A stretch of 64,000 nucleotides of DNA from assembly GCA_963793305.1 (NCBI GenBank), contig CAWBZV010000003.1, forward strand, positions 800,001 through 864,000, in the 5' to 3' direction. Under the pieces are notes generated by a model, which was not told the DNA's origin, made no database searches, and saw nothing but the letters and a program-made list of their open reading frames with translations. Made by a program: the position numbers and the translations under genes. This document shows, piece after piece, positions 926-12,886 of the stretch. Position 1 is the first letter of the stretch; each line of letters starts with the position of its first letter. Source of the stretch: an uncultured Gemmatimonadales bacterium (GTDB lineage Bacteria; Gemmatimonadota; Gemmatimonadetes; Gemmatimonadales; Gemmatimonadaceae).

Positions 926-980
926 AGATCCAATGCCACAGGGGGTTAGCGAGATACCGCTGTGCGGTCCGTCGCGTGCT
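840..980 (+). promoter_or_regulatory. Putative sigma-54 promoter with upstream activator-site repeats
   Basis: GG-N10-GC at 966-979 (cGGtccgtcgcgtGCt); ATTTGCG at 840 and 849 and its complement CGCAAAT at 865 and 886. Confidence 0.45.
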
Positions 981-1018
981 TAAGAACGCCTCCGACTCTC
1001 GCGCCCGGAGGCGTGTTC

Positions 1019-4000
1019 GTGCTCACGAATTGTTGGCGGTTCGTTCTTGTTGTTGTCTGCGCGTTGCTCGTCGCACTCGCTGGTGGGGTTCAGACGGCGT
1101 CCGCTCAGGTCGTCCCGCACCCACCGCGTCCATTCATCTGCATGCCCGGCCAACCCGGGTGTCACACGTATCCCCCCTCGGCGAGCATCAGCCCGACCAC
1201 TGAGACGGTCTCGTCGCGGACGCTGGCGGTGACGGTGACGCTGTGTGACAGCGTCAGCCTCGGAGCCGATTCGGTCGTCTTCAACGGCACCAACAACACG
1301 AGCGCCTTCACGGTCACGAACGTGACCGGATCGGGCCAATGCGCCGTGGAGAAGAAGCTGACCGCGACGCTTCCGCCACTGAACCTCGGGGCGAACACGC
1401 TCGTCGCGTACGTCTACAATGACTTCAGTGGCAACCTGACGAGCTCCATCGCATCCGTCACGTATACATACAACCCACCGCCGAGCGTCAGCGTGACGCC
1501 GAAGGGCAGCTCGCTCTCGCTCCCGACCTCGGCCTCCGACTCCGTCACGTTCACCGTGACGAGTCTCGAGTCGGGATCCGACAGCGCCGCCTTCACGTGC
1601 TCGGCGCCCGGCATCACCACGAGCTGCACGGTGGTGGCCGGGAAGCGATTGGCGGGCGGCGCCAACGCGCCGATCGCCGTACACCTCAATCAGCCGGCGG
1701 CCGCGACGGGCACGGTCACCTTGACCGCGACGATGACGGGGACCCTGGGCTCCGACAATGGGACCATCAACCTCACGCTCATCGATCGCACCCAAGTCCT
1801 GCGGATCGTCGCCGGCGGAGGGATACAGCAGGTGTTGCCGAGTGCCGCCATCGTCGCGCCATTCACGGTGACGAACTACGGCAACCTGCAGGACACCGTC
1901 AACCTCAGTACCACGTGCCCGGGGTCGGCGTTGAGTGGCAGTTGCACGCCGTCGGTCACCTCCTTCACGCTGACTCCGGGGGCATCGCGTGCCGTCACGG
2001 TGAGCGTCGCGGCCGGCACCACGGTCGGTGCGACCGGAACGGTGGGGTTGGTCGGCGCACTCGCCAGTGGTGGCGTGCGCGACAGCGCGTACACCGACAT
2101 CACCATTCGCGCCGCCCGCTCACACGGCGTCGAGCTCGGCGCGGTGAACGACTTCTCGCAGCAGACGCCCGCCCTCTGCTACGCGCGGGCGATCGTGCCG
2201 CGCGCGGCGTACGAGTGTGGCAACCTCCGCATCGCCCATGCCCTGCCGGCCGTCCGGACCTACAACAAGGTCCGGGTGCCGACGCTGCTGTACAGTAGTC
2301 AGCTCGCGCACCCGCATCCCGTGATCAATGCGATCATCACCCTCGACGCGAGCCAGGGCACGCCCGACAGCGTCCTCGGGCAGCTGATGGATGGGAGTGG
2401 CAATACCCTCGGCCATGGCAAGTGGGCCGGCGCCTCATTCGCCAACGGCGCGTCGCGCGCGGTGAGCATCGGTTACAACGCGAGTGGCGTGACGACGAAC
2501 GAGTACAGCTGGAAGGTGCAAGCGCAGGCGTTCTATCCCGATACGATGCTCCCCTACGTCACGAACGAGTTCTATGCGCTCGTCAGCGCGCAGGCCTCGC
2601 ATCTCGGACACGGCTGGACCGTGGCCGGCGTCGAGTCCATGCACGTCTACTCGTGCGGGTGCTCGATGTTGTGGAATTCGGCGGATGGCAGTGCCGAGTT
2701 TTACTCGAACCAGAGCACGGGTTCGTCGTCGACGTTCGCGCCAACGTCGGGATTGCTGACGCGGCCCGACACGATGAAGACCGATCACTCGACCGGGGTG
2801 CTGCACTACATTCGCTACGCGCCGCACGGCGTGCAGGTGATCTTCGATTCCACGGGGCATCATCTCCAAACGCGCGACCGCCTCGGGCACGTGACCACCT
2901 TCACGTACGTCAATGGGACGGACGTCGCCACCATCACGGTGCCGGCGCCGGGCGCGACGCTAACCTATCAGTTCGTGTACGACGGCACGACGCACATGTT
3001 GGACTCGGTCATCGCGCCGTCCGTCGGGGGGGAGCCGACCCGCGCCACCAAGCTCACGATCAACAGCGCGGGCGATGTGACGGCGATCCGGGACCCGGAT
3101 GGGATGTCGGTCACGTTCAACTATCGCACGGGTGGCGACTCCGACGTCATCACGTCGCTCACGGATCGCCGTGGCACGTATACGGCCTTCACCTACGATG
3201 CCGCGCGGGAGCTGGCGACCGCAACGGTCGACTCGACGAGCGGTGGATTCAATCTGACGACGAGCTTCGCCGGCGCGAACGCCTCGACGCTCACCGCTGC
3301 GCTCAACCAGGATTCGGTCTCGATGCTCGTGAACGGGCCGCGGACCGATGTCAGCGATACGGCGCGGATCTGGACGAATCGCTTTGGCCAGCCGGTCCGG
3401 CTCCGCGATGCGCTCGGCTACGAGACCGACCTGACGATGGGCAATACGACGTACTTGGCGGAGGTGACCCGACTCCGCCACCCCAACGGCCAGGTGCTTG
3501 GCGCGGTCCCCGATCCACGTGGCAACCTACAGAGCGAGACCGACTCGAGCCTCGTCAGCGGTGGTCAGTACGCCACGACGGCCTATACGTACGATGGCAA
3601 GTTCGACTTCGTCACGAGCATCACACCCCCATTGCTCGACGCGACGACGTTCACGTACGACACGGTGAATGGAAATCGACTCACGGCGCGGAATGCGCTC
3701 GGCGACTCGACCACCATCAACTACTTCTACGGCAACAGCGACTCGTTGCTCTCATCATCCCAGCCTCCCCACACGGCCAAGGACTCGATCCAGTACGATG
3801 GCGTCTTCGGCAACGTCGTGGGCGAGATGACGCCGCTCGGGTATTGGACGCTGACCCTCCTCGACGGGTATGGTCGGGATTCGTTGGCCATCACGCCCCT
3901 TCCGGCAGCCGACAAATCGCACGACCCGACGGGCGCGGGCGCCGTACGCGATACGACGGAGACGTTGTACGACCCGCTCGATCGTCCCTACTTCACGCTG

Positions 4001-6574
4001 ACGATCGCGCCGACGTACAACGGCGTGGTGCGCCAGACATCGAGCGTGCTCACCGACTACGACGGGGAAGGCGCCGTTCTCTCGACGCAGATCCAGCCAT
4101 CGCCGGACCCCAACAACATTGAACTGATCACCACGTTCCACTTTTATGACCGCGTCGGGCGGCTGAGCTACACGCAACATCCAGACAATTCGAAGGACAG
4201 CACGTACTACGACGCCGCTGGGAACGTGGATACCATCTATACCCGGCGCGGATACAAGATCCCTCAGGCGTTCGATGCATTGAATCGCATCGTGAAGCGC
4301 ATCGTGCCCTCGGTGTTCTACCCCAAGGACTCGATCGGCATTCCGGCGTTGACGGAGCAGAAGAGCTTCTACCTCACACAGAACCCGCCGTACGGCAATC
4401 TCACGATTCCGGGCGACAGCGCGGCGTTTCGCTATGACGAAGTCAGCAATACCGTCGAGGCGGACAATGCCGATGCGCGGATCAGCCGTGTCTACGACGC
4501 CGCGGGCCGGTTGCTCACCGAGACACAGCGCGTCCGCACGCGTGATGGTCAGAACTTCAATACGCACATCTACACGGTGGGGTACGGCTACGATCGCGAC
4601 AGCCGACGCACACTGGTCGTGCATCCAAGCCAGCTGGCGGCGATCGTCAGCGGCCAGTCCCGCGATACGTCCATCTACGGGTACGACCTGGCATCGCACG
4701 TGAGTACTGTGCGGGACATTCTCGGCGGAACGTTCACCTATGGGTACTCGGCCCGTGGCGATCTCATATCGTTGGCATTCCCCGATGGCGCGACCGAGGA
4801 GCGATTCGGGACCGATGACGACGGGCGCTTGACGAACGATTCGATCGGCCCCCTCAGCGGGGCGGCGAATTCGCGGAAGACGGCGCTGACCTACGATGCG
4901 CGCGGCAAGATCCTGACGGGGGTCAACACCTTCGGCATCCAGGACAACGTATCGGCAACGTATTCCGCCATGGGACACGTCGTCGTGCACAATGCTTCAT
5001 TCATCTTTCCGGCGTACGACGGCAGTCCGCAGCAGAACGGCACGGATGACGAGACGTACACACTGGATCCCCTGGGGAATCAAGTCAGCTCGACCTCGAG
5101 CACCAATATCGCCGTCGGGACCATCTCTGATCCGACGACCAGCCTCGCGTTGGCGGGCTACAACAACCGCATTGGGGAGCAGACGGTGCGTCAGGGAGGG
5201 AGCGCCGGTGTCCATGGCTCAGCCGACGCGCTGTTATACGACGCGGAAGGCAACCTGTACGGGACCTATCAGACATCAATCGTGCAGGGCGACCCCGCGG
5301 TAGATCTCTTCTCGTACTATGGCGCGGACAATCGGCTCCGCATGGCGGACAATCGAACGGTCGCCAATGCGTTCGTCCAGACGCTGACGATTTCGAGCCG
5401 CGCGCTCGAGACCTATCGCTACGACGCGCTCGGCCGCCGGGTGTTCAAGCAAGCCGACGACTGGTGTCCGACCAACACGACGGTCTGGAACTACTGCCAT
5501 CGCGCCACGCTGCGCCGCTTTGTGTGGGACGGCGCGCAAGAGTTGGACGAAATTCAGACGCAGGATACCGCCGTCGTATCGATTGCCGAAGCCGACACCG
5601 GCGTCGTCAAGCTCGGCATCCAATGCAATGGCGTGTGCTCCGACAACAACAAATTCTTCGGTCGAGTGCTGTACACGACCGGATTGACGGTCGACCAGCC
5701 GTTGGCGGTGACGCGTGTGGACTATGCCGACTCGGCGACCGTCGTCAATGGCTTAGCCGGCACGCCGGTGCCGTACTATGTCCACCCGCCACTCACGTTC
5801 GTGCCGGTGTGGAACGCCTACGGCCGGTGGGACGCTGTTCTCGATTACGAGTGCGTGACGATGCCGGGCAGCACGCAGCCGCGCTGCGTCGACTCGCAGG
5901 TCGAACTCGGACTCAATCCATACGACAACCTGCACGTCAACGTCCTCAGTTATATGGGATCGATGTTGGAGGACAAGCGCGATGAGACTGGGACACGATA
6001 CCGGCGGGCTCGCACGTACAATCCGACCACCGGGCTGTTCACACAGGAAGATCCCCTCGGCCTCGCCGGCGGGCTCAACGCCTACGGCTTCGCGGAAAGC
6101 GACCCGGTTAATTATTCCGATCCTTTCGGGTTGTGTCCCTTCGGTCAGGTGGTGTGCAACCTCTTCAATAGTTACGCGAACTGGCGTGACGATCAGGAAA
6201 GTGAGTACAAGGAATTTCACGGCGGCGACCAGGTGGTCGCGCTCGAGGTCCCCGGCATATTTGCCGCTGCCAGCCCCGAAGGCATCGCGGAAGGACTCGG
6301 GGAGATCGGAGAGCAATTCGAAAACATCTCAAACGAACTCAAGACCTCGAATCACTTTCAAGCGGCTCGGATGGAGCAGACGGGCCGCCTGGAGACAGGT
6401 GCCGATCACGCGCATGAGCTCAAGGACTTCGCCAACGGCCTGCGCAACTCCGCGGTCAAACTGAAACGTATCTTGAGTAATCCCAAGCTCGAGGCTGCGG
6501 TTCGTAAAGATGCACAGGAGCTCCTCAGCAACGTCAGCATACTGCGCGACCGTATCATGGAGGCACTGAAGTGA
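1019..6574 (+). CDS. RHS/YD-repeat polymorphic toxin with signal peptide, Ig-like N-terminal domains and Ntox28-like C-terminal toxin
   Basis: Likely start GTG 1019 after GGAGG (1007-1011); hydrophobic leader ending ASA-Q; YD repeats; core RARTYNPTTGLFTQEDPLGLAGGLNAYGF..DPVNYSDPFGL; variable C-terminus. Confidence 0.92.
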   Translation: MLTNCWRFVLVVVCALLVALAGGVQTASAQVVPHPPRPFICMPGQPGCHTYPPSASISPTTETVSSRTLAVTVTLCDSVSLGADSVVFNGTNNTSAFTVTNVTGSGQCAVEKKLTATLPPLNLGANTLVAYVYNDFSGNLTSSIASVTYTYNPPPSVSVTPKGSSLSLPTSASDSVTFTVTSLESGSDSAAFTCSAPGITTSCTVVAGKRLAGGANAPIAVHLNQPAAATGTVTLTATMTGTLGSDNGTINLTLIDRTQVLRIVAGGGIQQVLPSAAIVAPFTVTNYGNLQDTVNLSTTCPGSALSGSCTPSVTSFTLTPGASRAVTVSVAAGTTVGATGTVGLVGALASGGVRDSAYTDITIRAARSHGVELGAVNDFSQQTPALCYARAIVPRAAYECGNLRIAHALPAVRTYNKVRVPTLLYSSQLAHPHPVINAIITLDASQGTPDSVLGQLMDGSGNTLGHGKWAGASFANGASRAVSIGYNASGVTTNEYSWKVQAQAFYPDTMLPYVTNEFYALVSAQASHLGHGWTVAGVESMHVYSCGCSMLWNSADGSAEFYSNQSTGSSSTFAPTSGLLTRPDTMKTDHSTGVLHYIRYAPHGVQVIFDSTGHHLQTRDRLGHVTTFTYVNGTDVATITVPAPGATLTYQFVYDGTTHMLDSVIAPSVGGEPTRATKLTINSAGDVTAIRDPDGMSVTFNYRTGGDSDVITSLTDRRGTYTAFTYDAARELATATVDSTSGGFNLTTSFAGANASTLTAALNQDSVSMLVNGPRTDVSDTARIWTNRFGQPVRLRDALGYETDLTMGNTTYLAEVTRLRHPNGQVLGAVPDPRGNLQSETDSSLVSGGQYATTAYTYDGKFDFVTSITPPLLDATTFTYDTVNGNRLTARNALGDSTTINYFYGNSDSLLSSSQPPHTAKDSIQYDGVFGNVVGEMTPLGYWTLTLLDGYGRDSLAITPLPAADKSHDPTGAGAVRDTTETLYDPLDRPYFTLTIAPTYNGVVRQTSSVLTDYDGEGAVLSTQIQPSPDPNNIELITTFHFYDRVGRLSYTQHPDNSKDSTYYDAAGNVDTIYTRRGYKIPQAFDALNRIVKRIVPSVFYPKDSIGIPALTEQKSFYLTQNPPYGNLTIPGDSAAFRYDEVSNTVEADNADARISRVYDAAGRLLTETQRVRTRDGQNFNTHIYTVGYGYDRDSRRTLVVHPSQLAAIVSGQSRDTSIYGYDLASHVSTVRDILGGTFTYGYSARGDLISLAFPDGATEERFGTDDDGRLTNDSIGPLSGAANSRKTALTYDARGKILTGVNTFGIQDNVSATYSAMGHVVVHNASFIFPAYDGSPQQNGTDDETYTLDPLGNQVSSTSSTNIAVGTISDPTTSLALAGYNNRIGEQTVRQGGSAGVHGSADALLYDAEGNLYGTYQTSIVQGDPAVDLFSYYGADNRLRMADNRTVANAFVQTLTISSRALETYRYDALGRRVFKQADDWCPTNTTVWNYCHRATLRRFVWDGAQELDEIQTQDTAVVSIAEADTGVVKLGIQCNGVCSDNNKFFGRVLYTTGLTVDQPLAVTRVDYADSATVVNGLAGTPVPYYVHPPLTFVPVWNAYGRWDAVLDYECVTMPGSTQPRCVDSQVELGLNPYDNLHVNVLSYMGSMLEDKRDETGTRYRRARTYNPTTGLFTQEDPLGLAGGLNAYGFAESDPVNYSDPFGLCPFGQVVCNLFNSYANWRDDQESEYKEFHGGDQVVALEVPGIFAAASPEGIAEGLGEIGEQFENISNELKTSNHFQAARMEQTGRLETGADHAHELKDFANGLRNSAVKLKRILSNPKLEAAVRKDAQELLSNVSILRDRIMEALK

Positions 6575-7035
6575 ACATAGACCTGTCGCCGTGGAGGGCA
6601 CCGGCGGAGCTCGTCGACGCGATTTGGGCTGCGCGACGCGAGCAGCGGAGGGACCTGCAACCGGCGATCGTGCAACTGCTCGATCACGATAACCCGACCG
6701 TTCGTGAAGAGGCGGTGTCGTTGCTTTTTGTCAAGTGGGCGGATCGCTCGCTTCGTGACCGGCTCATCGGCCTGATGCGATCCGACCCTGATTTCGGGGT
6801 ACGGGCGCGGGCAGCCGGGGCCCTTGGACTGACATCGGACGACCGGAGCCGGCGCCGCGACTGTGAAGTACTCCGGCAGATCGTACTCGATAGGGAAGAC
6901 GACCCGGTCGTCCGTAAGGCGTGTTATGAGGCACTACAAGGAATGATCCACGGCAAGGCAATGCTACTCGACGACGATGTCGATCTCGATGAGGATGTGG
7001 ATTTGGAATGGGTGAAGGCAGCCTGCGGTGACTGA
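6571..7035 (+). CDS. HEAT-repeat protein, probable cognate immunity protein
   Basis: GTGA overlap with RHS stop; three HEAT/PBS-like units (DNPTVREEAVSLL, DPDFGVRARAAGALG, EDDPVVRKACYEAL). Confidence 0.8.
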   Translation: MNIDLSPWRAPAELVDAIWAARREQRRDLQPAIVQLLDHDNPTVREEAVSLLFVKWADRSLRDRLIGLMRSDPDFGVRARAAGALGLTSDDRSRRRDCEVLRQIVLDREDDPVVRKACYEALQGMIHGKAMLLDDDVDLDEDVDLEWVKAACGD

Positions 7036-7124: not shown

Positions 7125-7137
7125 GCATTCATGGTAA

Positions 7138-7236
7138 TCATTCCGTCACGAGAAAATTGAACTGGCCGAGCCCCTGCGCGCGCGCGAAGTCTGCGGTGCT
7201 GCCGAGGCGGCCCGGTCCGCGCGACGTGATGTAAGG
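7138..7236 (-). pseudogene. Diverged duplicate of the 3' end of the FkbM methyltransferase gene
   Basis: Encodes YITSRGPGRLGSTADFARAQGLGQFNFLVTE*, versus YITSRGPVPLGSTSDFARAQELGQFNFLVTE* at 11972-12070. Confidence 0.85.
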
Positions 7237-7545
7237 AAATCGTTCCTGAAGGCATCCATCTCGTGAGCCTCGGTCGCCGTCACGGGCACATTGCGTGTCG
7301 AATCGACCGTCTCCGACGCGAGCAGTTGATCCAAACAGCCGCTCATCCTCGCGCGCTACGCGCGCCGTGCGCGCGATCGACGCCTCGACGTCCACCGGCT
7401 CGCTGGCGGCTTCGACGCTCAACCAGAGGCCGATCCTGGCCCACTCCGCCGCAATCGCGGCCACTGTGTCATTGACTCCGGCGTCGGGCGAATGCTTGGC
7501 AGCTGTCGTCCTCATCTCACTTTGCCTGCGTGCCAGGCCAGGCAT
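7237..7545 (-). pseudogene. Probable fragment of a hypothetical gene fused to the FkbM remnant
   Basis: Protein-like stretch IAAEWARIGLWLSVEAASEPVDVEASIARTARVAREDERLF that then loses coding character. Confidence 0.3.
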
Positions 7546-8225
7546 CGAGCGCCGTCACCGCGGGCGCGCTCGAAGATAAGTTGGATGCTGCAGGTACGGT
7601 GAATCGCCGAGCGCGAACTTACGATCCTCTCACGGGGCGGCTTACGCAGGAGGATCCGGCCGGGTTAGCTGGAGGGCTGAATGAGTACGGTTTTGCAGCC
7701 GGTGATCCGGTCAACTACAGTGATCCGTTCGGCCTGTGTCCACCATGCGACGGCAATGGCGTGTCGCCCCAGCGCCACCATACACCGACCGCTGACGAAG
7801 AGGCATTGCAGGGCCCCGGACTGCTTGATCCTGTCGCAATCGGGACTGGGTTCTTGGCGGGTCCGGTGGATGCTGCGATCACTGGGGCGATAGAACGCGC
7901 TGGTGCGGATGCTGCAGCCACATCGGCTGCCAAAGCGGGCACCAAGGTGTATCGGGTTTTCGGCGGGGAGGCGAAGCCCATGGGTCGCTATTGGACTCCC
8001 GTAAATCCCGCAGAAGTAGCAGGCTTCCGGGCTGCGGCGGGGCTGCCAGTCGAGAACACGGGCCGATTCGTGATCGAAGGGGTGCTGCAGGATGCTACCG
8101 GAGTGCAGGTAGGGCGTGCGGCGGCCGGTGCAGGCGGTAGGGGTGGGATCCCTGAGTTCTTGGTTCCCGCGCCGGCGAAACAGATTCAAATTATAAACGT
8201 GTCTGGCGCGAACCCACCATTCTGA
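7530..8225 (+). CDS. Orphan RHS module 1: truncated RHS core plus C-terminal toxin (possible ADP-ribosyltransferase/NADase fold)
   Basis: LEDKLDAAGTVNRRARTYDPLTGRLTQEDPAGLAGGLNEYGFAAGDPVNYSDPFGLCP parallels the main RHS core; tip has VYRVFGG..GRYWT..GGIPE; no convincing start codon. Confidence 0.85.
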   Translation: MPGQASSAVTAGALEDKLDAAGTVNRRARTYDPLTGRLTQEDPAGLAGGLNEYGFAAGDPVNYSDPFGLCPPCDGNGVSPQRHHTPTADEEALQGPGLLDPVAIGTGFLAGPVDAAITGAIERAGADAAATSAAKAGTKVYRVFGGEAKPMGRYWTPVNPAEVAGFRAAAGLPVENTGRFVIEGVLQDATGVQVGRAAAGAGGRGGIPEFLVPAPAKQIQIINVSGANPPF

Positions 8226-8232
8226 GGGGGGC

Positions 8233-8622
8233 ATGAGCGACAAGGGTCCAGATTTCTTCCTTGGCTCGAGCGACAGCCGCGGTGACTTTGCGCGCGCGCG
8301 TGCAGCATCGGCGCGCGCGCGCCTCGCCGGGCCGAACAACGTTCAGTATCTGTGGATTCGCGTTGAGCCGGCGATAATCGGACAGCCGTACGGCTTAGGC
8401 GGAGCGGATATTCACGACCTGATAATCGCTCCGCACTACGACGGCAGTACCTTGTTCCCGATCAAGGAGTTTCCCATGCCTGTTGTCGTTTACCGTGCAT
8501 TAAGCGATCGGGTGTTCGAGACACTTCGATTCGGTGAAGAAGACGTCTCTAACATCGCATGGGGAGAGCTGTACCGGACGCGCGACGCGGCGGTAGCCGC
8601 CTCGGGGGGCGAAACTCTCTGA
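8233..8622 (+). CDS. Putative immunity protein for orphan toxin 1
   Basis: 129 aa ORF 7 nt after the toxin stop, with GAGGGG RBS. Confidence 0.75.
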   Translation: MSDKGPDFFLGSSDSRGDFARARAASARARLAGPNNVQYLWIRVEPAIIGQPYGLGGADIHDLIIAPHYDGSTLFPIKEFPMPVVVYRALSDRVFETLRFGEEDVSNIAWGELYRTRDAAVAASGGETL

Positions 8623-8677
8623 CGCCACGCTACCTGCAACAAGAGGACAGCGTCTATCCATTTTGCTACGAGTGCGT

Positions 8678-9019
8678 ATGAAAGACCGGTCTTCCAACGA
8701 GCGTCGTGAGCGGCGCGTCGAGTTTCTGGGCGAGCAAGATGGTCCACCGGAGCGCGAACTCAAAGCGCTTCTGCAGAAAGAACTTCGTCGATTCCCTACG
8801 GTGCGGCGAGCCTACCTTGCGCGCGTCGGGTTTGCACCGGATGCTGCAGTATCCGTGGCGTTGTGCATTGCTCCGAGCTCAAAGAATGATCAGGCCATAG
8901 TTCAGACAGTCAGTCGTGTGTTTGGAGCGTACTTCGCTTCTGAGGCTCATCTCGACATCGTCTTTCTTGATGCCGAACAGGAAGAAGATCTGAGACGCGT
9001 CTGTGGTTCGTTCCTCTAA
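8678..9019 (+). CDS. SseB C-terminal-domain-like small protein, possible accessory immunity protein
   Basis: FLGEQDGPPERELK..VRRAYLARV..HLDIVFL pattern recalls standalone SseB_C proteins; ATG 8678. Confidence 0.6.
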   Translation: MKDRSSNERRERRVEFLGEQDGPPERELKALLQKELRRFPTVRRAYLARVGFAPDAAVSVALCIAPSSKNDQAIVQTVSRVFGAYFASEAHLDIVFLDAEQEEDLRRVCGSFL

Positions 9020-9042
9020 AAACCGTGGGAATCCGCTTCGCC

Positions 9043-9170
9043 CGCGGGTCGGGTGTTAATTCGGGCCTCGGTGGGCCGTCTGGATCGCCGGACCTCACAG
9101 TCGTCGCGCGGGTCGAGTGTAAATTCGGGCCTCATCGAGCCTTCCGGATCACTGGACCTCGCGCCTGTCA
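9043..9170. repeat. Two imperfect 64-bp tandem repeats, each an internal-loop hairpin (candidate target-binding loops)
   Basis: Units start at 9043 and 9107 (cgcgggtcgRgtgtWaattcgggcctc...tcYggatcRcYggacctc); outer stem shows a compensatory G-C to A-T change. Confidence 0.85.
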
Positions 9171-9590
9171 TCAGGGCCGCGCCGTGGACAGAGGGGTGGT
9201 CGTCCCACTGACTGAGGCTCGCAGCCTGGGTGTGTTTGCGGACCTCCCCCCGTACACCGCGTGTGACGACCGTGTGTCTCCTCGAGCGTCCACGGCGCAT
9301 TCCGGATCGCTAGGTCTCTCGTCTCACGCGGAATAGCTCGTGATCAGTTGTCAAACAGCGCCGAAGAGCTGCGTGCGTAGTGGGACCTCCACGCGACGAT
9401 CAAAACCTCGGTGCTCGGCGGGTCACGCCGGCACGACACATCTTCATAGACGCTTCGGATCCGAGGGAGACCTAGACGGTTGTATGACGACGGTCACCTG
9501 CGCGAACAGCCAGGGCCGCAAGGAACTTGAAGGTCGAAGCATCTCCCTCCACGCTCGGCTCACCACCCGTACCTTCGTCTTCTCCTCCGT
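9043..9590 (-). ncRNA. Putative bridge/seek RNA downstream of the IS110 recombinase
   Basis: No credible ORF; nested stems 9179-9189/9288-9298 (11 bp), 9198-9204/9265-9271 and 9310-9318/9467-9475; loop segments match target and donor junctions; exact ends unknown. Confidence 0.7.
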
Positions 9591-10858
9591 TCATGCCGCT
9601 CGATACGGCGACTCACGCTGGAGCACCTGCCACCGCCCGGCGTCGAACGGTTCTGCGGTCTGCATGATATGCAACAACATCGGGACGAGCTTCCGGGCGA
9701 TCGCACACACGGCGCTCACCTTGGATCCGCCGTTTCGCGCGACCAGCGCGACGTACTGCTCATGACACAATCCACCCGTCCGGCAGCATCGGCCCGCGAG
9801 CAGGAAGAGCTGGCGTCGGAGCGCCGGCCGCCCGCGCTTCGTCTGTCGGATCCGACTGCGGACGGACGTTCCGCTTTCCTTCCCCGCCAGGTTCATGCCG
9901 GCGAGCTTCAGCACCTGGCGCGGCGAGACGTAGCTCGCCGGCGTGCCGAGTTCGGCGACGAGGGTCGAGGCGCAGACGACGCTCACACCCGGCACCGTGG
10001 TTAAGGCGGCGACGGCCGTGATCTCCTGGGCGAGCTCCGTCAACTGAGCCTCGACCGCCCCGATGTGAAGCCGGACGATCGTCCACCGGGCGAGGAGACG
10101 CCGGATCTCCTGACGGCGGGCACCGCGATCGTCGACCACTCCGATCGTCAATGCCGCGGCCGTCAGGAACGCGTTGATCCGGTCTGGCGCGAAATGGTTG
10201 TGCGAGACCTTGCGGATGAGCGCTCGTACACGCATCGGTCGCTCGGCATCGAGCTCCGCCGGCGTCGACCAGTGCCGGAGCAGCGCGATCGGCGTGCAGT
10301 ACTTCACGTCGGTGAACGTGGCGGTGAACTCCGGCCAGACGACGTCGAGGACGCTCAAGAGTCGGTTCTTGAGTCGCGTCTCCTCGACGGCGAGCCGCTG
10401 GCGCTCGGTCGTCAGGGCCCGAAGGGCGATCGCGCGCGGCTCAAGAAGGGCGTAGCTGACGAACAGACCGTCGCTCACGAGCCGACAGATCAGGCTAGCG
10501 TCTTTCGCATCGTCCTTCCGTGGGCTGTTGTCTTCCATCTCCTTGAGCCGCTTCGTCAGAGCCGAGAGCACCGTGACCACGCGTAGCCGCGCCGGTGCAG
10601 ATCGGCGGCGAAGGTCTGCCCATGGTGGCCCGCGAACTCGATGCCCACGAGCATCCGTTCGCGGGGCACGTTGGGGAACAGTGCGGTGAGATGTGCGTCA
10701 GCAGCATCGAACCCGCCGCGACTCACCGGCACTGTAATGGCCTTGGTGCGACGGCTGTCCGGCCCGCGTGCAACGAGCATGTGAAAAGTCTTGCCGGTGT
10801 CGACACCCACATGGACGCAAAAGGTACGGGCGTACGCGAGCTTGTCGTCGGCGTGCAT
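9591..10858 (-). CDS. IS110-family transposase/recombinase, split by a single-base frameshift near 10581
   Basis: DEDD residues VGVDTGK, GIEFAG, KDDAKDA; C-terminal LTTVPGVS..AELG..LAGM..ESGTS with conserved Ser; adding one G joins ORFs 10556-10858 and 9591-10580 as GYAVVTV. Confidence 0.92.
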
Positions 10859-11062
10859 GGCGCGGGCGAGTAGAGTGTGGTAGCGTCAGCCGGGGGAGGC
10901 CAGACTCTCTCACCCGTGAGAATGTTGCCGCTACACTAATGCACGCTGCATACCACACCTCGCGATCACCAGCGCTCGATCAATGATCGACGGCAAAACA
11001 AAACCCAATGTCGGTGTGCAGCGCTCTATAGTGGCTGCACACTAACATCGGGAGATAGATGT

Positions 11063-11599
11063 GTAAATTACTCGGACCCATTCGGTCTGAGCCCATGCCC
11101 TCCAGACAACGACTGCGGCATCAGCGCGAGCGACGCACTCGCGGCTCTCACGGGCGCGGGTCGGCTCCTTCAGCCCGCGCAAGGACCTCTCGAAGTGGCT
11201 GGTACGATTGCGGTCGCACCGCTGGCCGGGGGAGTGGGGGCAGCCGAGGAGATCAGCGGTGCCGTGATTGCGCTCGGACAGACGCTGAGGTCCGGAGCCG
11301 GTAGCGGGGTTCTGACAGCGGCGGGAGTAGCGGGACGAGTGGCGTCTGCGACCGGCGGCGCCGTTTCCCAGCTAGCCAAGTCGGAAGGTTTCAAAGTCAC
11401 GGTGGACGCCGGGCGAGCTATTGTCGCTAGAATTAAGTCTACTGGCGACATCCGTGTGGGTATCGACGGCATCGGCTCACTGACACGCGAGGGCGTAGTG
11501 TCCGCGAATCGAGCGCTCACCCATCTGAAGAACCTGTCGAGCCAAGAGATAATTGGTCTCATCAACAAGGCTCGTGAATTGCTCGCAGCGCCACGCTAA
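11063..11599 (+). pseudogene. Orphan RHS module 2: displaced C-terminal toxin beginning exactly at VNYSDPFGL
   Basis: In frame upstream of ORF 11195: GTA AAT TAC TCG GAC CCA TTC GGT CTG = VNYSDPFGL, with no RHS core sequence before it. Confidence 0.85.
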
Positions 11600-11623: not shown

Positions 11624-11959
11624 ATGGATCGCGCCGTCCTGCCGCAGGCACTCAATGGTGGTTACATCGAGGAGTACGAGTTCGACCTGCGTCGGAATCT
11701 ATTCTCCATGCGAGTCCATGTTCTCGACAACGATCTGCTGTCCAGCTATAACGTGCGGTTCGAGAAGTTGAGTCAGTTCGCGATGGATAGTGAGAGCCTG
11801 GGTGACAAAGAGCGACTCGAACTGACCGAGATCTGGATCGACTCGACTCCGGAGTCGTCCAGTACCGAGGAGTGGAGTATTACGATAAGCATGTGGGACA
11901 TTACTCACATTCGCCTGCGGTGCGCCATCATCGTGATCGATGGCGCACCGCTGCGCTGA
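11624..11959 (+). CDS. Putative immunity protein for orphan toxin 2
   Basis: Acidic 111 aa ORF directly after the toxin tip; lower GC than flanking housekeeping genes. Confidence 0.7.
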   Translation: MDRAVLPQALNGGYIEEYEFDLRRNLFSMRVHVLDNDLLSSYNVRFEKLSQFAMDSESLGDKERLELTEIWIDSTPESSSTEEWSITISMWDITHIRLRCAIIVIDGAPLR

Positions 11960-11971
11960 CGACGAGAGACA

Positions 11972-12886
11972 TCACTCTGTCACCAAGAAATTGAACTGCC
12001 CGAGCTCCTGCGCGCGCGCGAAGTCGGAGGTGCTCCCGAGGGGGACCGGCCCGCGCGACGTGATGTAGGAGACGTTGAGGCCGAGGCTGAGGACGCGGTC
12101 GATGATGTGGCCCTCGTTGATCGCCCGCCCGAGAAACTCCATGATCAGCGTCGGCCGCCCACGCGGGCGACGCAGCGTGCGCTCGAATCCATCGAGCAAT
12201 CGCATCTCGTGCCCTTCGACGTCGATCTTGAGCAACGCCGTCTCCGGCGCGATGCCCTCGCGCTCGAACACCTCGTCGAGCGAGACGACCGGCACGTCGA
12301 ATCGCTCGCGCAGGTCGCCCAATGCGGTGCGCCCCGACTCTAGCGTGCTTTCCTGATCGTTCTCGCGAACGTAGAACGTCATCGTGCCCGGCTCGGCGCT
12401 GACGCCCGCGTGGCGCACCTCGACGCGCGGGCTCCAGCCGTTGCGCTCGACGTTCCGTTCGATGAGAGACGCGAGATGGGGCGTTGGCTCGTACGCGATG
12501 ACGCGCGCATGAGGTGCGTGGCTCGCGGCGAGATAGGTGAACACGCCGACGTTGGCGCCAATGTCGAAGATGGTCGTCGCCTCGCGCGCGAGCGATGTGA
12601 AGAGACGAATGGTCGACCAGTCGGCATACTGCTGGAGCGGCTGGACGAGCAGGCTGCGGCAACTCGGCAGCGACAGGTCCAACTCTAATGTGACCACGGA
12701 CGCCCCGAGGTCGATCGACGCGACCGTCGTGCGGTGTGCCGAGCGACAGACGAGCTCTTCGACCGCGCGAGACGCGGAGTTGCCGCCGAGGATGCGGCGT
12801 TGCCCCAAGCGGGCCACCAGCGCGATCAACGGCGGACCGAGTACGGTCGACCCAGTGCGGCGCAACGTGCGCGCGACGACCGACAT
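11972..12886 (-). CDS. FkbM family SAM-dependent methyltransferase
   Basis: IFDIGANVGVFT, YEPTP, LLKIDVEGHE motifs; likely start ATG 12886. Confidence 0.9.
   Translation of the reverse strand: MSVVARTLRRTGSTVLGPPLIALVARLGQRRILGGNSASRAVEELVCRSAHRTTVASIDLGASVVTLELDLSLPSCRSLLVQPLQQYADWSTIRLFTSLAREATTIFDIGANVGVFTYLAASHAPHARVIAYEPTPHLASLIERNVERNGWSPRVEVRHAGVSAEPGTMTFYVRENDQESTLESGRTALGDLRERFDVPVVSLDEVFEREGIAPETALLKIDVEGHEMRLLDGFERTLRRPRGRPTLIMEFLGRAINEGHIIDRVLSLGLNVSYITSRGPVPLGSTSDFARAQELGQFNFLVTE

Follow-up and report, generated by a model that had tools for sequence, protein, structure and literature searches.

In the window, the 64,000-nucleotide stretch of DNA analysed here, a 570-bp gap lies between a transposase gene on the minus strand (10858-9591) and a run of Rhs-related sequence on the plus strand, which raises the question of what the gap encodes and whether the toxin gene beside it moves with the transposase. 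A sequence-only reading had placed the donor-binding region of a bridge RNA in the gap and proposed that positions 7712-11064 form a mobile unit with a GT core and with the toxin as cargo. The letters that it quoted are all present as it gave them, and its donor-binding region is borne out by guides that vary together with the element ends. Relatives of the element, copies in integron attC sites and the guide covariation likewise bear out its core, its ends at 7712 and 11064, and a cargo lying inside them.

We put the probability at about 0.86 that this interval is an IS110-family element with a predicted bridge RNA of one donor loop and four target loops, that its cargo-side end is the start of an Rhs tip, and that insertion at a D-P-V-N motif would swap the tip in frame, displacing the former tip together with its likely immunity gene. 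Comparison at the level of sequence shows the ends and the inclusion of the cargo, the covariation of guides with DNA in the donor and target loops, the in-frame fusions, and the copies with the same cargo at different sites. We also consider a broader reading somewhat better than an even bet: an RNA-guided lineage of two clades that would act as a programmable toxin exchange of soil Gemmatimonadota, in which CRISPR-like arrays of loops would cover the codon variants of one motif, an Rhs warhead and its immunity gene would be delivered in frame, mutual insertion of the clades would build orphan arrays, integrons would store tips, and excision would revert the toxin.

The mobile unit and its recombinase

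The features of the locus are collected in Table 1. In the 16 elements compared, each end has a GT or CT core; there is no target duplication, and empty-like sites exist. Complete relatives are 2.6-3.5 kb long, with about 200 bp before the transposase and about 550 bp of RNA behind it.

Table 1. Positions of the element's parts and of its Rhs surroundings in the window.
Feature	Position	Strand	Basis or remark
Full-length Rhs gene with its own tip	962-6574	+	1870 aa
HEAT-repeat protein, likely conferring immunity to the full-length Rhs	6571-7035	+	role suggested by position
Orphan Rhs core fragment, host of the insertion	7530-7709	+	TIGR03696 over cut-off
Core GT, cargo-side junction	7710-7711	+	first two bases of the Val codon in D-P-V-N
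Cargo toxin tip	7712-8225	+	171 codons counted from the core; frame continuous with that of the Rhs core; first three bases form the cargo-side donor half
Cargo gene 2, likely immunity protein	8233-8622	+	role suggested by position directly behind the tip
Cargo gene 3, SseB_C-like	8663-9019	+	E 2e-4, under cut-off
Target loop 4	9040-9100	-	guides 9080-9088 and 9053-9061; D-P-V-N, Val codon GTT
Target loop 3	9104-9164	-	guides 9144-9152 and 9117-9125; D-P-V-N, Val codon GTA
Target loop 2	9195-9248	-	guides 9230-9238 and 9207-9214; non-Rhs, variable among close relatives
Target loop 1	9268-9320	-	guides 9302-9310 and 9274-9282; D-P-V-S
Conserved motif, in both sister clades and whatever the element end	9348-9355	-	conservation
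Conserved donor domain of the RNA	9360-9559	-	outer helices 9559-9550 with 9375-9360
Donor guide, cargo-side end	9399-9404	-	pairs with core and 7712-7714
Donor guide, transposase-side end (11057-11064)	9435-9443	-	match and covariation
IS110-family recombinase gene	9591-10858	-	PF01548, PF02371; one-base frameshift near 10580
Short transposase-side end	10859-11064		donor half 11057-11062, core GT 11063-11064
Displaced Rhs tip without a start	11063-11599	+	178 codons when counted from the core
Likely immunity gene of the displaced tip	11624-11959	+	role suggested by position; weak YxiG match, under cut-off

The intact transposase of the relative L028 scores over the cut-off for NF033542, and residues D20, E74, D117, D120 and S329, which correspond to a DEDD domain and a catalytic serine, are invariant in 12 sequences. 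Against IS621, the window-type recombinase gives a phmmer E of 2e-12. The window transposase is the sole copy in its genome and, set beside three relatives of 86-92% protein identity, is one base short near 10580. This frameshift is probably real, because contigs of runs X1 and X2 (one study; X1 may be the window's source) share its letters, and the window copy is likely immobile unless a recombinase is supplied in trans. The contig sets of four runs held neither an 11064/7712 circle junction nor an empty site, contigs being prone to drop rare forms and the recombinase here being broken. There was no match among plasmids at E 1e-30 and none among viral contigs, and no RNA run was among those listed as carrying the stretch.

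Relatives were gathered by similarity of transposase and RNA only, and one of the two nearest transposases comes from a genome of the window's genus. They are present in 7 of 401 genomes in a phylum sample and 20 of 401 in a family sample, and 429 protein clusters were found at E 1e-60. Two of the copies have altered ends: between 4500 and 6000 of L001, two other insertion sequences cut the transposase and the transposase-side end is lost, and near 5470-5530 of L029 a 48-bp tandem duplication of the transposase-side end has left two consecutive donor halves.

Cargo and insertion sites

We built a model of the window tip (pLDDT 77, six sequences) whose nearest structure is Tne2 (Z 7.7, rmsd 4.7 over 104 residues) and which reaches Z 7.6 against the Rhs C-terminal toxin Rhs1-CT, both Z values being middling; the Atlas gives a TNT-domain lead (0.93). 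The tip is accordingly modelled as a predicted NAD-consuming toxin with an ADP-ribosyltransferase/NADase-like fold. Relatives of it, at 44-62%, sit on five longer proteins, four of them named Rhs, the range for Rhs proteins being 50-58%. The second cargo gene has no Pfam or NCBIfam match. Among the tips of 25 elements, five have a Pfam-named domain (HNH, Tlde1, DUF4329 and, twice, DUF4951) and one more has a Gly-zipper match only, under the cut-off, while matches among the 24 second genes include Imm32 (under cut-off) and Imm-NTF2-2. Tips begin at the DPxG hinge and occur where full-length Rhs proteins end, and a set of 26 holds five similar pairs beyond one duplicate.

The insertion in the window struck the orphan fragment and not the full-length Rhs gene, which sits 1.6 kb upstream. 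The displaced tip matches the C terminus of two longer Rhs proteins, P0270 (84%) and P0271 (1824 aa, 66%), where it follows directly after G-D-P-V-N; at the protein level, this is the empty allele of the window site. The full-length Rhs protein is likely secreted without a type VI needle. It has a signal-peptide-like start, repeats that look Ig-like by eye, and a tip with a weak Ntox28 match (E 0.016). The 3' end of an FkbM methyltransferase gene is present as an 87% copy at 7137-7233 and 11971-12067, flanking the orphan, the element and the displaced pair, as if the whole 4.8-kb block between the copies had arrived by another event. DNA similar to 7334-7573 also lies behind another Rhs locus (G000:C5 near 1483500).

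In relatives, 16 of 26 transposase-side ends adjoin a displaced Rhs tip in frame, five an attC core and five other sequence. On the far side, an open tip running 113-187 codons from the GT/CT core is found in 26 of the 35 RNA-bearing copies, and in 7 of the 35 the contig ends within 1.2 kb. L064 has a further tip, with a variant motif, whose start fits the guide; the L041 tip has an early stop; and for L030 two nearer motif matches outside an Rhs context were passed over for the end seen in another of our comparisons. In L051, L053, L060 and L065 the cargo tip and an open frame of 1365-1698 codons are joined in the same reading frame. In six copies at non-Rhs sites (L042, three in L044, L046 and L054) the tip starts exactly at the core, and uninterrupted attC-like copies of the site, which close exactly at the far core, adjoin L042, L044 and L054. 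L042 has an integron integrase at a distance of 3.5 kb, and L044 one at about 22 kb. The non-Rhs loops of the attC-site elements match those sites, which are likely parking places for the element. Copies in integron attC sites, each with a matching loop and with the toxin tip kept, are those of L042, L044, L054 and probably L057.

Mobility with cargo is illustrated by L044-2479 and L044-8945, which are 97.7% identical including the cargo and occupy different sites. L044-17197 has the same transposase and RNA as L044-8945 but a different tip, and the presence of such near-identical elements with different tips in one genome suggests selection for variety.

A second clade of transposases, 35-39% identical to the first, occupies the same loci. 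Both clades join on one branch with support 99 in a tree made by a quick method with a midpoint root, from proteins other than named IS1111 or IS110 references and with 7 ungrouped proteins inside the branch. Six clade 2 elements have the same layout, with tips of 149-180 codons and with donor half and guide changed together. Elements of clade 2 often sit at the cargo-side junction of clade 1 elements, and the reverse, which produces chains of tips. Chains of both clades behind one Rhs core are seen in L029, L041, L043, L055, L058 and L060. L077 repeats L043; L077 and L078, 98.6% identical, lie at two Rhs loci with different displaced tips.

These insertions bear on whether the element, taken as described, might be purely selfish, using the conserved hinge to land safely and the tip only to keep the host gene open, while the swap yields the host no working new weapon. 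The orphan fragment struck in the window, the several copies that carry a tip without a start in attC or other sites, and the nested two-clade chains that pile up at one hinge would suit such an element, but the tips are long, open and nearly all different, have an immunity-like gene behind them and relatives where full-length Rhs proteins end, and differ between near-identical elements such as L044-17197 and L044-8945. We consider a purely selfish element unlikely and prefer toxin exchange.

The donor domain of the predicted guide RNA

The RNA lies on the minus strand. Folded as a single sequence, 9020-9600 does no better than shuffles (z 0.22), and the plus strand gives z -2.57, with 5 of 200 shuffles equally good. 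We made an alignment of 25 of the 35 RNA-bearing elements, from which 6 copies lacking the 5' anchor, 2 with long insertions and 2 near-copies were omitted. Its consensus fold has six helices, with 95.8% of cells paired, two-sided changes at 20 of 35 pairs and 0 of 500 shuffles as high, figures that are favoured by the fold having been predicted from the alignment on which it was scored and that leave out one 3-pair helix over the guide. In this fold 9463-9471 pairs with 9541-9549, closing one branch of the domain, and the other branch bears the donor loop. Rfam has no family for it at gathering score.

The sequence-only reading had drawn the domain at 9310-9475, closed by a stem between its two ends. 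The arms, 9310-9318 and 9467-9475, are complementary over 9 nt each, but across the 25 relatives the stem pairs in 55.6% of cells, a level reached by 18 of 500 shuffles and well short of the consensus fold, and sliding it by one column yields equal covariation. The first of these arms, 9310-9318, belongs to target loop 1, whose 5' edge it forms. Both the stem and the limits that it set gave way to the conserved domain of Table 1.

Two segments had been proposed as donor guides. The reverse complement of 9435-9443 is 11057-11064 plus 7712, and 9349-9354 reads 11062, the core and 7712-7714. A 9-mer match arises in 0.21% of 20,000 dinucleotide shuffles of the 166 nt and a 6-mer match in 3.9%; the 9-base match is beyond chance and the 6-base match is weak. 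The first segment shifts with the element end in L053 and between clades, which upholds its proposed role at the transposase-side end. In the consensus fold it faces 9395-9410 across one internal loop, and there the bases 9401-9403 predict the first three cargo bases in 24 of 26 elements and at 9 of the 11 ends that are not CAA. After 8 related copies were dropped, 9400-9404 still predicted 16 of 18 ends (p 1e-5), against 12 of 18 for 9349-9354. This rule is missed by L031 and L062, in which the cargo starts GAA and the guide reads CAA. In clade 2 the cargo-side guide gives the right end in 6 of 6 elements, among which four different words occur. Ten clade 2 loci came later: the 7 with a tip all fit the guide (5 by script, 2 by eye), 2 are cut short, and L079 has no tip in the 2.4 kb behind its RNA.

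The motif at 9349-9354 does not follow the cargo in this way. It is nearly constant while the cargo-side end varies, predicting 15 of 26 ends and 1 of the 11 non-CAA ends (permutation p 0.17), and its clade 2 equivalent reads CAA in 6 of 6 elements, only 1 of which has a CAA end. Covariation in homologs, which the sequence-only reading had named as a check on its guides, thus holds for 9435-9443 and fails for 9349-9354, whose role as second guide passes to 9400-9404. One could still hold that the 9310-9475 fold is right and that 9349-9354 is a second donor guide in a multibranch loop, whether by itself or as an additional contact. The motif shows strong conservation, fits the window donor and changes with the end in L051, and multi-loop donor domains are described for IS1111 elements in the accessible text of PMC11208160. 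Against these points stand the counts just given, the lack of conservation of the closing stem, and L058 and L062, where the motif changes and the end does not follow; we regard such a guide as very unlikely, and take the cargo-side end to be read by the internal loop of the consensus fold.

The motif occurs a second time in L059, L061, L064 and L067. We tried it as a -35 promoter element and rejected this, with 0 promoter-like sites in 8900-11200. The donor domain also has a second internal loop, at about 9533-9478 on the minus strand, with conserved closing bases and variable strands. As a guide to its own element this loop was rejected as well, the longest matches to own and to other elements being 7.9 and 7.7 in one comparison and 7.1 and 6.4 in a second.

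Target loops and the cargo-side end

Behind the donor domain the RNA has repeated 52-nt hairpins with a symmetric internal loop. Our target-loop profile finds four in the window, at least two in 24 of 35 elements and none in 4 of 35. Loop 1 scores weakly (3.0 bits) and folds poorly alone (z +0.95). Decoded from their guides, loops 1, 3 and 4 read as codon variants of the Rhs D-P-V-N/S hinge. Loop 3 exactly matches both flanks of the insertion, with its 5' strand on 7702-7710 and its 3' strand on 11061-11069, and thereby spans both flanks, the core between them and the final two bases of the donor; the left target half in the orphan fragment, 7702-7709, matches the left guide at 8 of 8 positions. 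The empty site of the window insertion decodes to G-D-P-V-N-Y-S-D-P-F-G-L. Of 9 Rhs hinges scored in the genome, that of the full-length Rhs gene (6099-6113) comes closest to the decoded loop 4 target, with differences at 2 of 15 positions.

Across relatives, the 3' target guide follows the flank, and it matches its own flank by at least 4 bases beyond core and handshake in 11 of 23 elements, compared with 43 of 506 cross pairs. None of 100,000 permutations was as high, although kin are not independent, so that permutation values overstate the case. Among the 12 elements below the threshold, several have one or two mismatches and one is cut by its contig. The 41 decoded Rhs-type loops give D-P-V-N 21 times, D-P-V-S 12 times, D-P-V-T 5 times and other readings 3 times, with N, S or T as the fourth residue in 38 of 41, spelled with 14 different five-base words; this decoding is partly circular, in that the Asp-Pro word picks the loops, the core is fixed as GT and the handshake is required, which leaves codons 3-4 free. 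The likely reason for having several loops is that conservation of the hinge is at the level of protein and not of DNA, with one codon variant per loop. Three of 41 clade 1 loops decode to the CAA start of their own cargo, and since most loops avoid this start, re-insertion at an element's own junction would be limited.

The guides of loop 2 match 8907-8924 (minus strand) in the element's own SseB_C-like cargo gene over 9 and 8 nt, with one extra base at the core position; the match is unique in the genome and lies 300 bp from the loop. It could be the footprint of guide acquisition, or loop 2 could be a binding-only loop. None of 16 other non-Rhs loops matches its own cargo, the window being the only case. 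The decoded target of an L001 loop is absent from G522 and G000.

The two kinds of loop together bear on where the cargo-side end lies. The donor loop reads three cargo-side bases, and nine such words occur on the plus strand between 6100 and 9040; of the nine, the word at 7710 alone has a target-guide match in front of it. The claim that the donor domain places the element ends independently was therefore overstated, reading as it does only three cargo-side bases; by sequence, this end appears to be set jointly by donor and target guides, together with the relatives. An ordinary IS1111-like element ending near 9030, with the upstream tip a resident orphan from homologous recombination, is the least credible alternative and is largely refuted: orphan arrays are common and are usually put down to recombination in the accessible text of PMC8125069 and PMC5361080, and L031, L062 and L079 break the rule, but near 9030 we found no further core accompanied by a target match, the attC copies carry the tip without a preceding Rhs core and their empty sites close at the far core, and the donor guide tracks the first tip bases.

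Proposed mechanism

By analogy with IS621, the RNA would be transcribed, a circle joining 11064 to 7712 would be excised, and strands would be exchanged at the GT core. One recombinase dimer and the donor loop would hold the donor of the circle, another would hold an Rhs hinge on the target loop that fits it, and two guide bases that pair with the donor after exchange would bias the reaction towards insertion. The right half of the donor would supply the start of V-N-Y-x-D-P-F-G-L, so that the host frame would be rebuilt and continue into the new tip. The old tip would be stranded without a start behind the transposase, with its likely immunity gene downstream, and precise excision would bring it back. 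The extra non-Rhs loops would aim at integron attC sites.

Comparison with known systems

As IS621 is described in the accessible text of PMC11208160 and PMC13626964, the element resembles it in pairing a DEDD and serine recombinase with an RNA whose internal-loop strands would read both strands of target and donor around a two-base core, and in having two extra guide bases placed for pairing with the donor after exchange. Unlike IS621, which has one target loop, the element has up to four; its RNA lies behind the transposase with the donor loop first; its donor half is protein-coding and its natural cargo 0.7-1.3 kb; and it targets several codon variants of one protein motif.

With the IS1111 group (PMC11187229, as far as its accessible text goes) it shares a long non-coding end behind the transposase and a short one before it, as well as the order of the guides, the one complementary to the transposase-sense strand preceding the other; here the 5' guides read as the window's plus strand, antisense to the transposase. 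A comparison of 19 complete elements at 12 offsets gave no sub-terminal inverted repeats of 7-17 bp, mean complementarity being 0.18-0.35 with never more than 3 conserved positions. By sequence, then, the enzyme is an IS110-family member that appears to work like that of an IS1111-type element while lacking the IS1111 inverted repeats. As in the IS1111-attC elements ISKpn4 and ISPst6 of the same paper, some copies lie in attC sites; unlike those elements, attC is only a second target here, and their cargo was added by experimenters.

The outcome proposed here is that of Rhs C-terminal displacement, in which, according to the accessible text of PMC8125069 and PMC5361080, a new tip and its immunity gene become attached at the DPxG hinge to the conserved core, with the old pair shifting downstream. 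Those papers attribute it to homologous or homology-facilitated illegitimate recombination, and PMC5361080 states that there is no evidence for an integrase doing this in Vibrio arrays. Unlike in the published displacement, each new tip here brings a recombinase and a guide, which are kept between the new and the old tips. Our literature search, with subscription journals outside it, found no description of Rhs tip swapping by IS110 elements or bridge RNAs. The invertases Piv and MooV are IS110-related recombinases that alter which coding end joins a host gene, as we propose for this element; unlike it, they invert a fixed segment, are not mobile and have no variety of cargo. Both are named as pilin invertases in PMC11208160. 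The accessible main text of a preprint that clusters 32,190 bridge RNAs (10.64898/2026.10.21.760802) has no Rhs or toxin, and its supplements could hold such RNAs.

The IS110 family and bridge RNA are known; new here are the target-loop array, the coding donor end and the proposed toxin exchange. The gain of an Rhs tip with the old pair kept downstream has hitherto been ascribed to rare recombination without a dedicated enzyme. Here recombinase, guide and cargo are all readable in the DNA, and together they make up a likely dedicated machine for toxin shuffling. If our reading is true, Rhs C-terminal displacement would have an enzyme-driven route, and a natural, multi-target bridge RNA for in-frame domain swapping would exist. 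We did not find in print bridge RNAs with several target loops per donor loop, with a coding donor half that yields an in-frame fusion, or with natural kilobase cargo. Such an RNA would offer an existing design for inserting at multiple sites and for swapping domains without a scar, and its variable loops would provide a way to study how bridge RNAs acquire guides.
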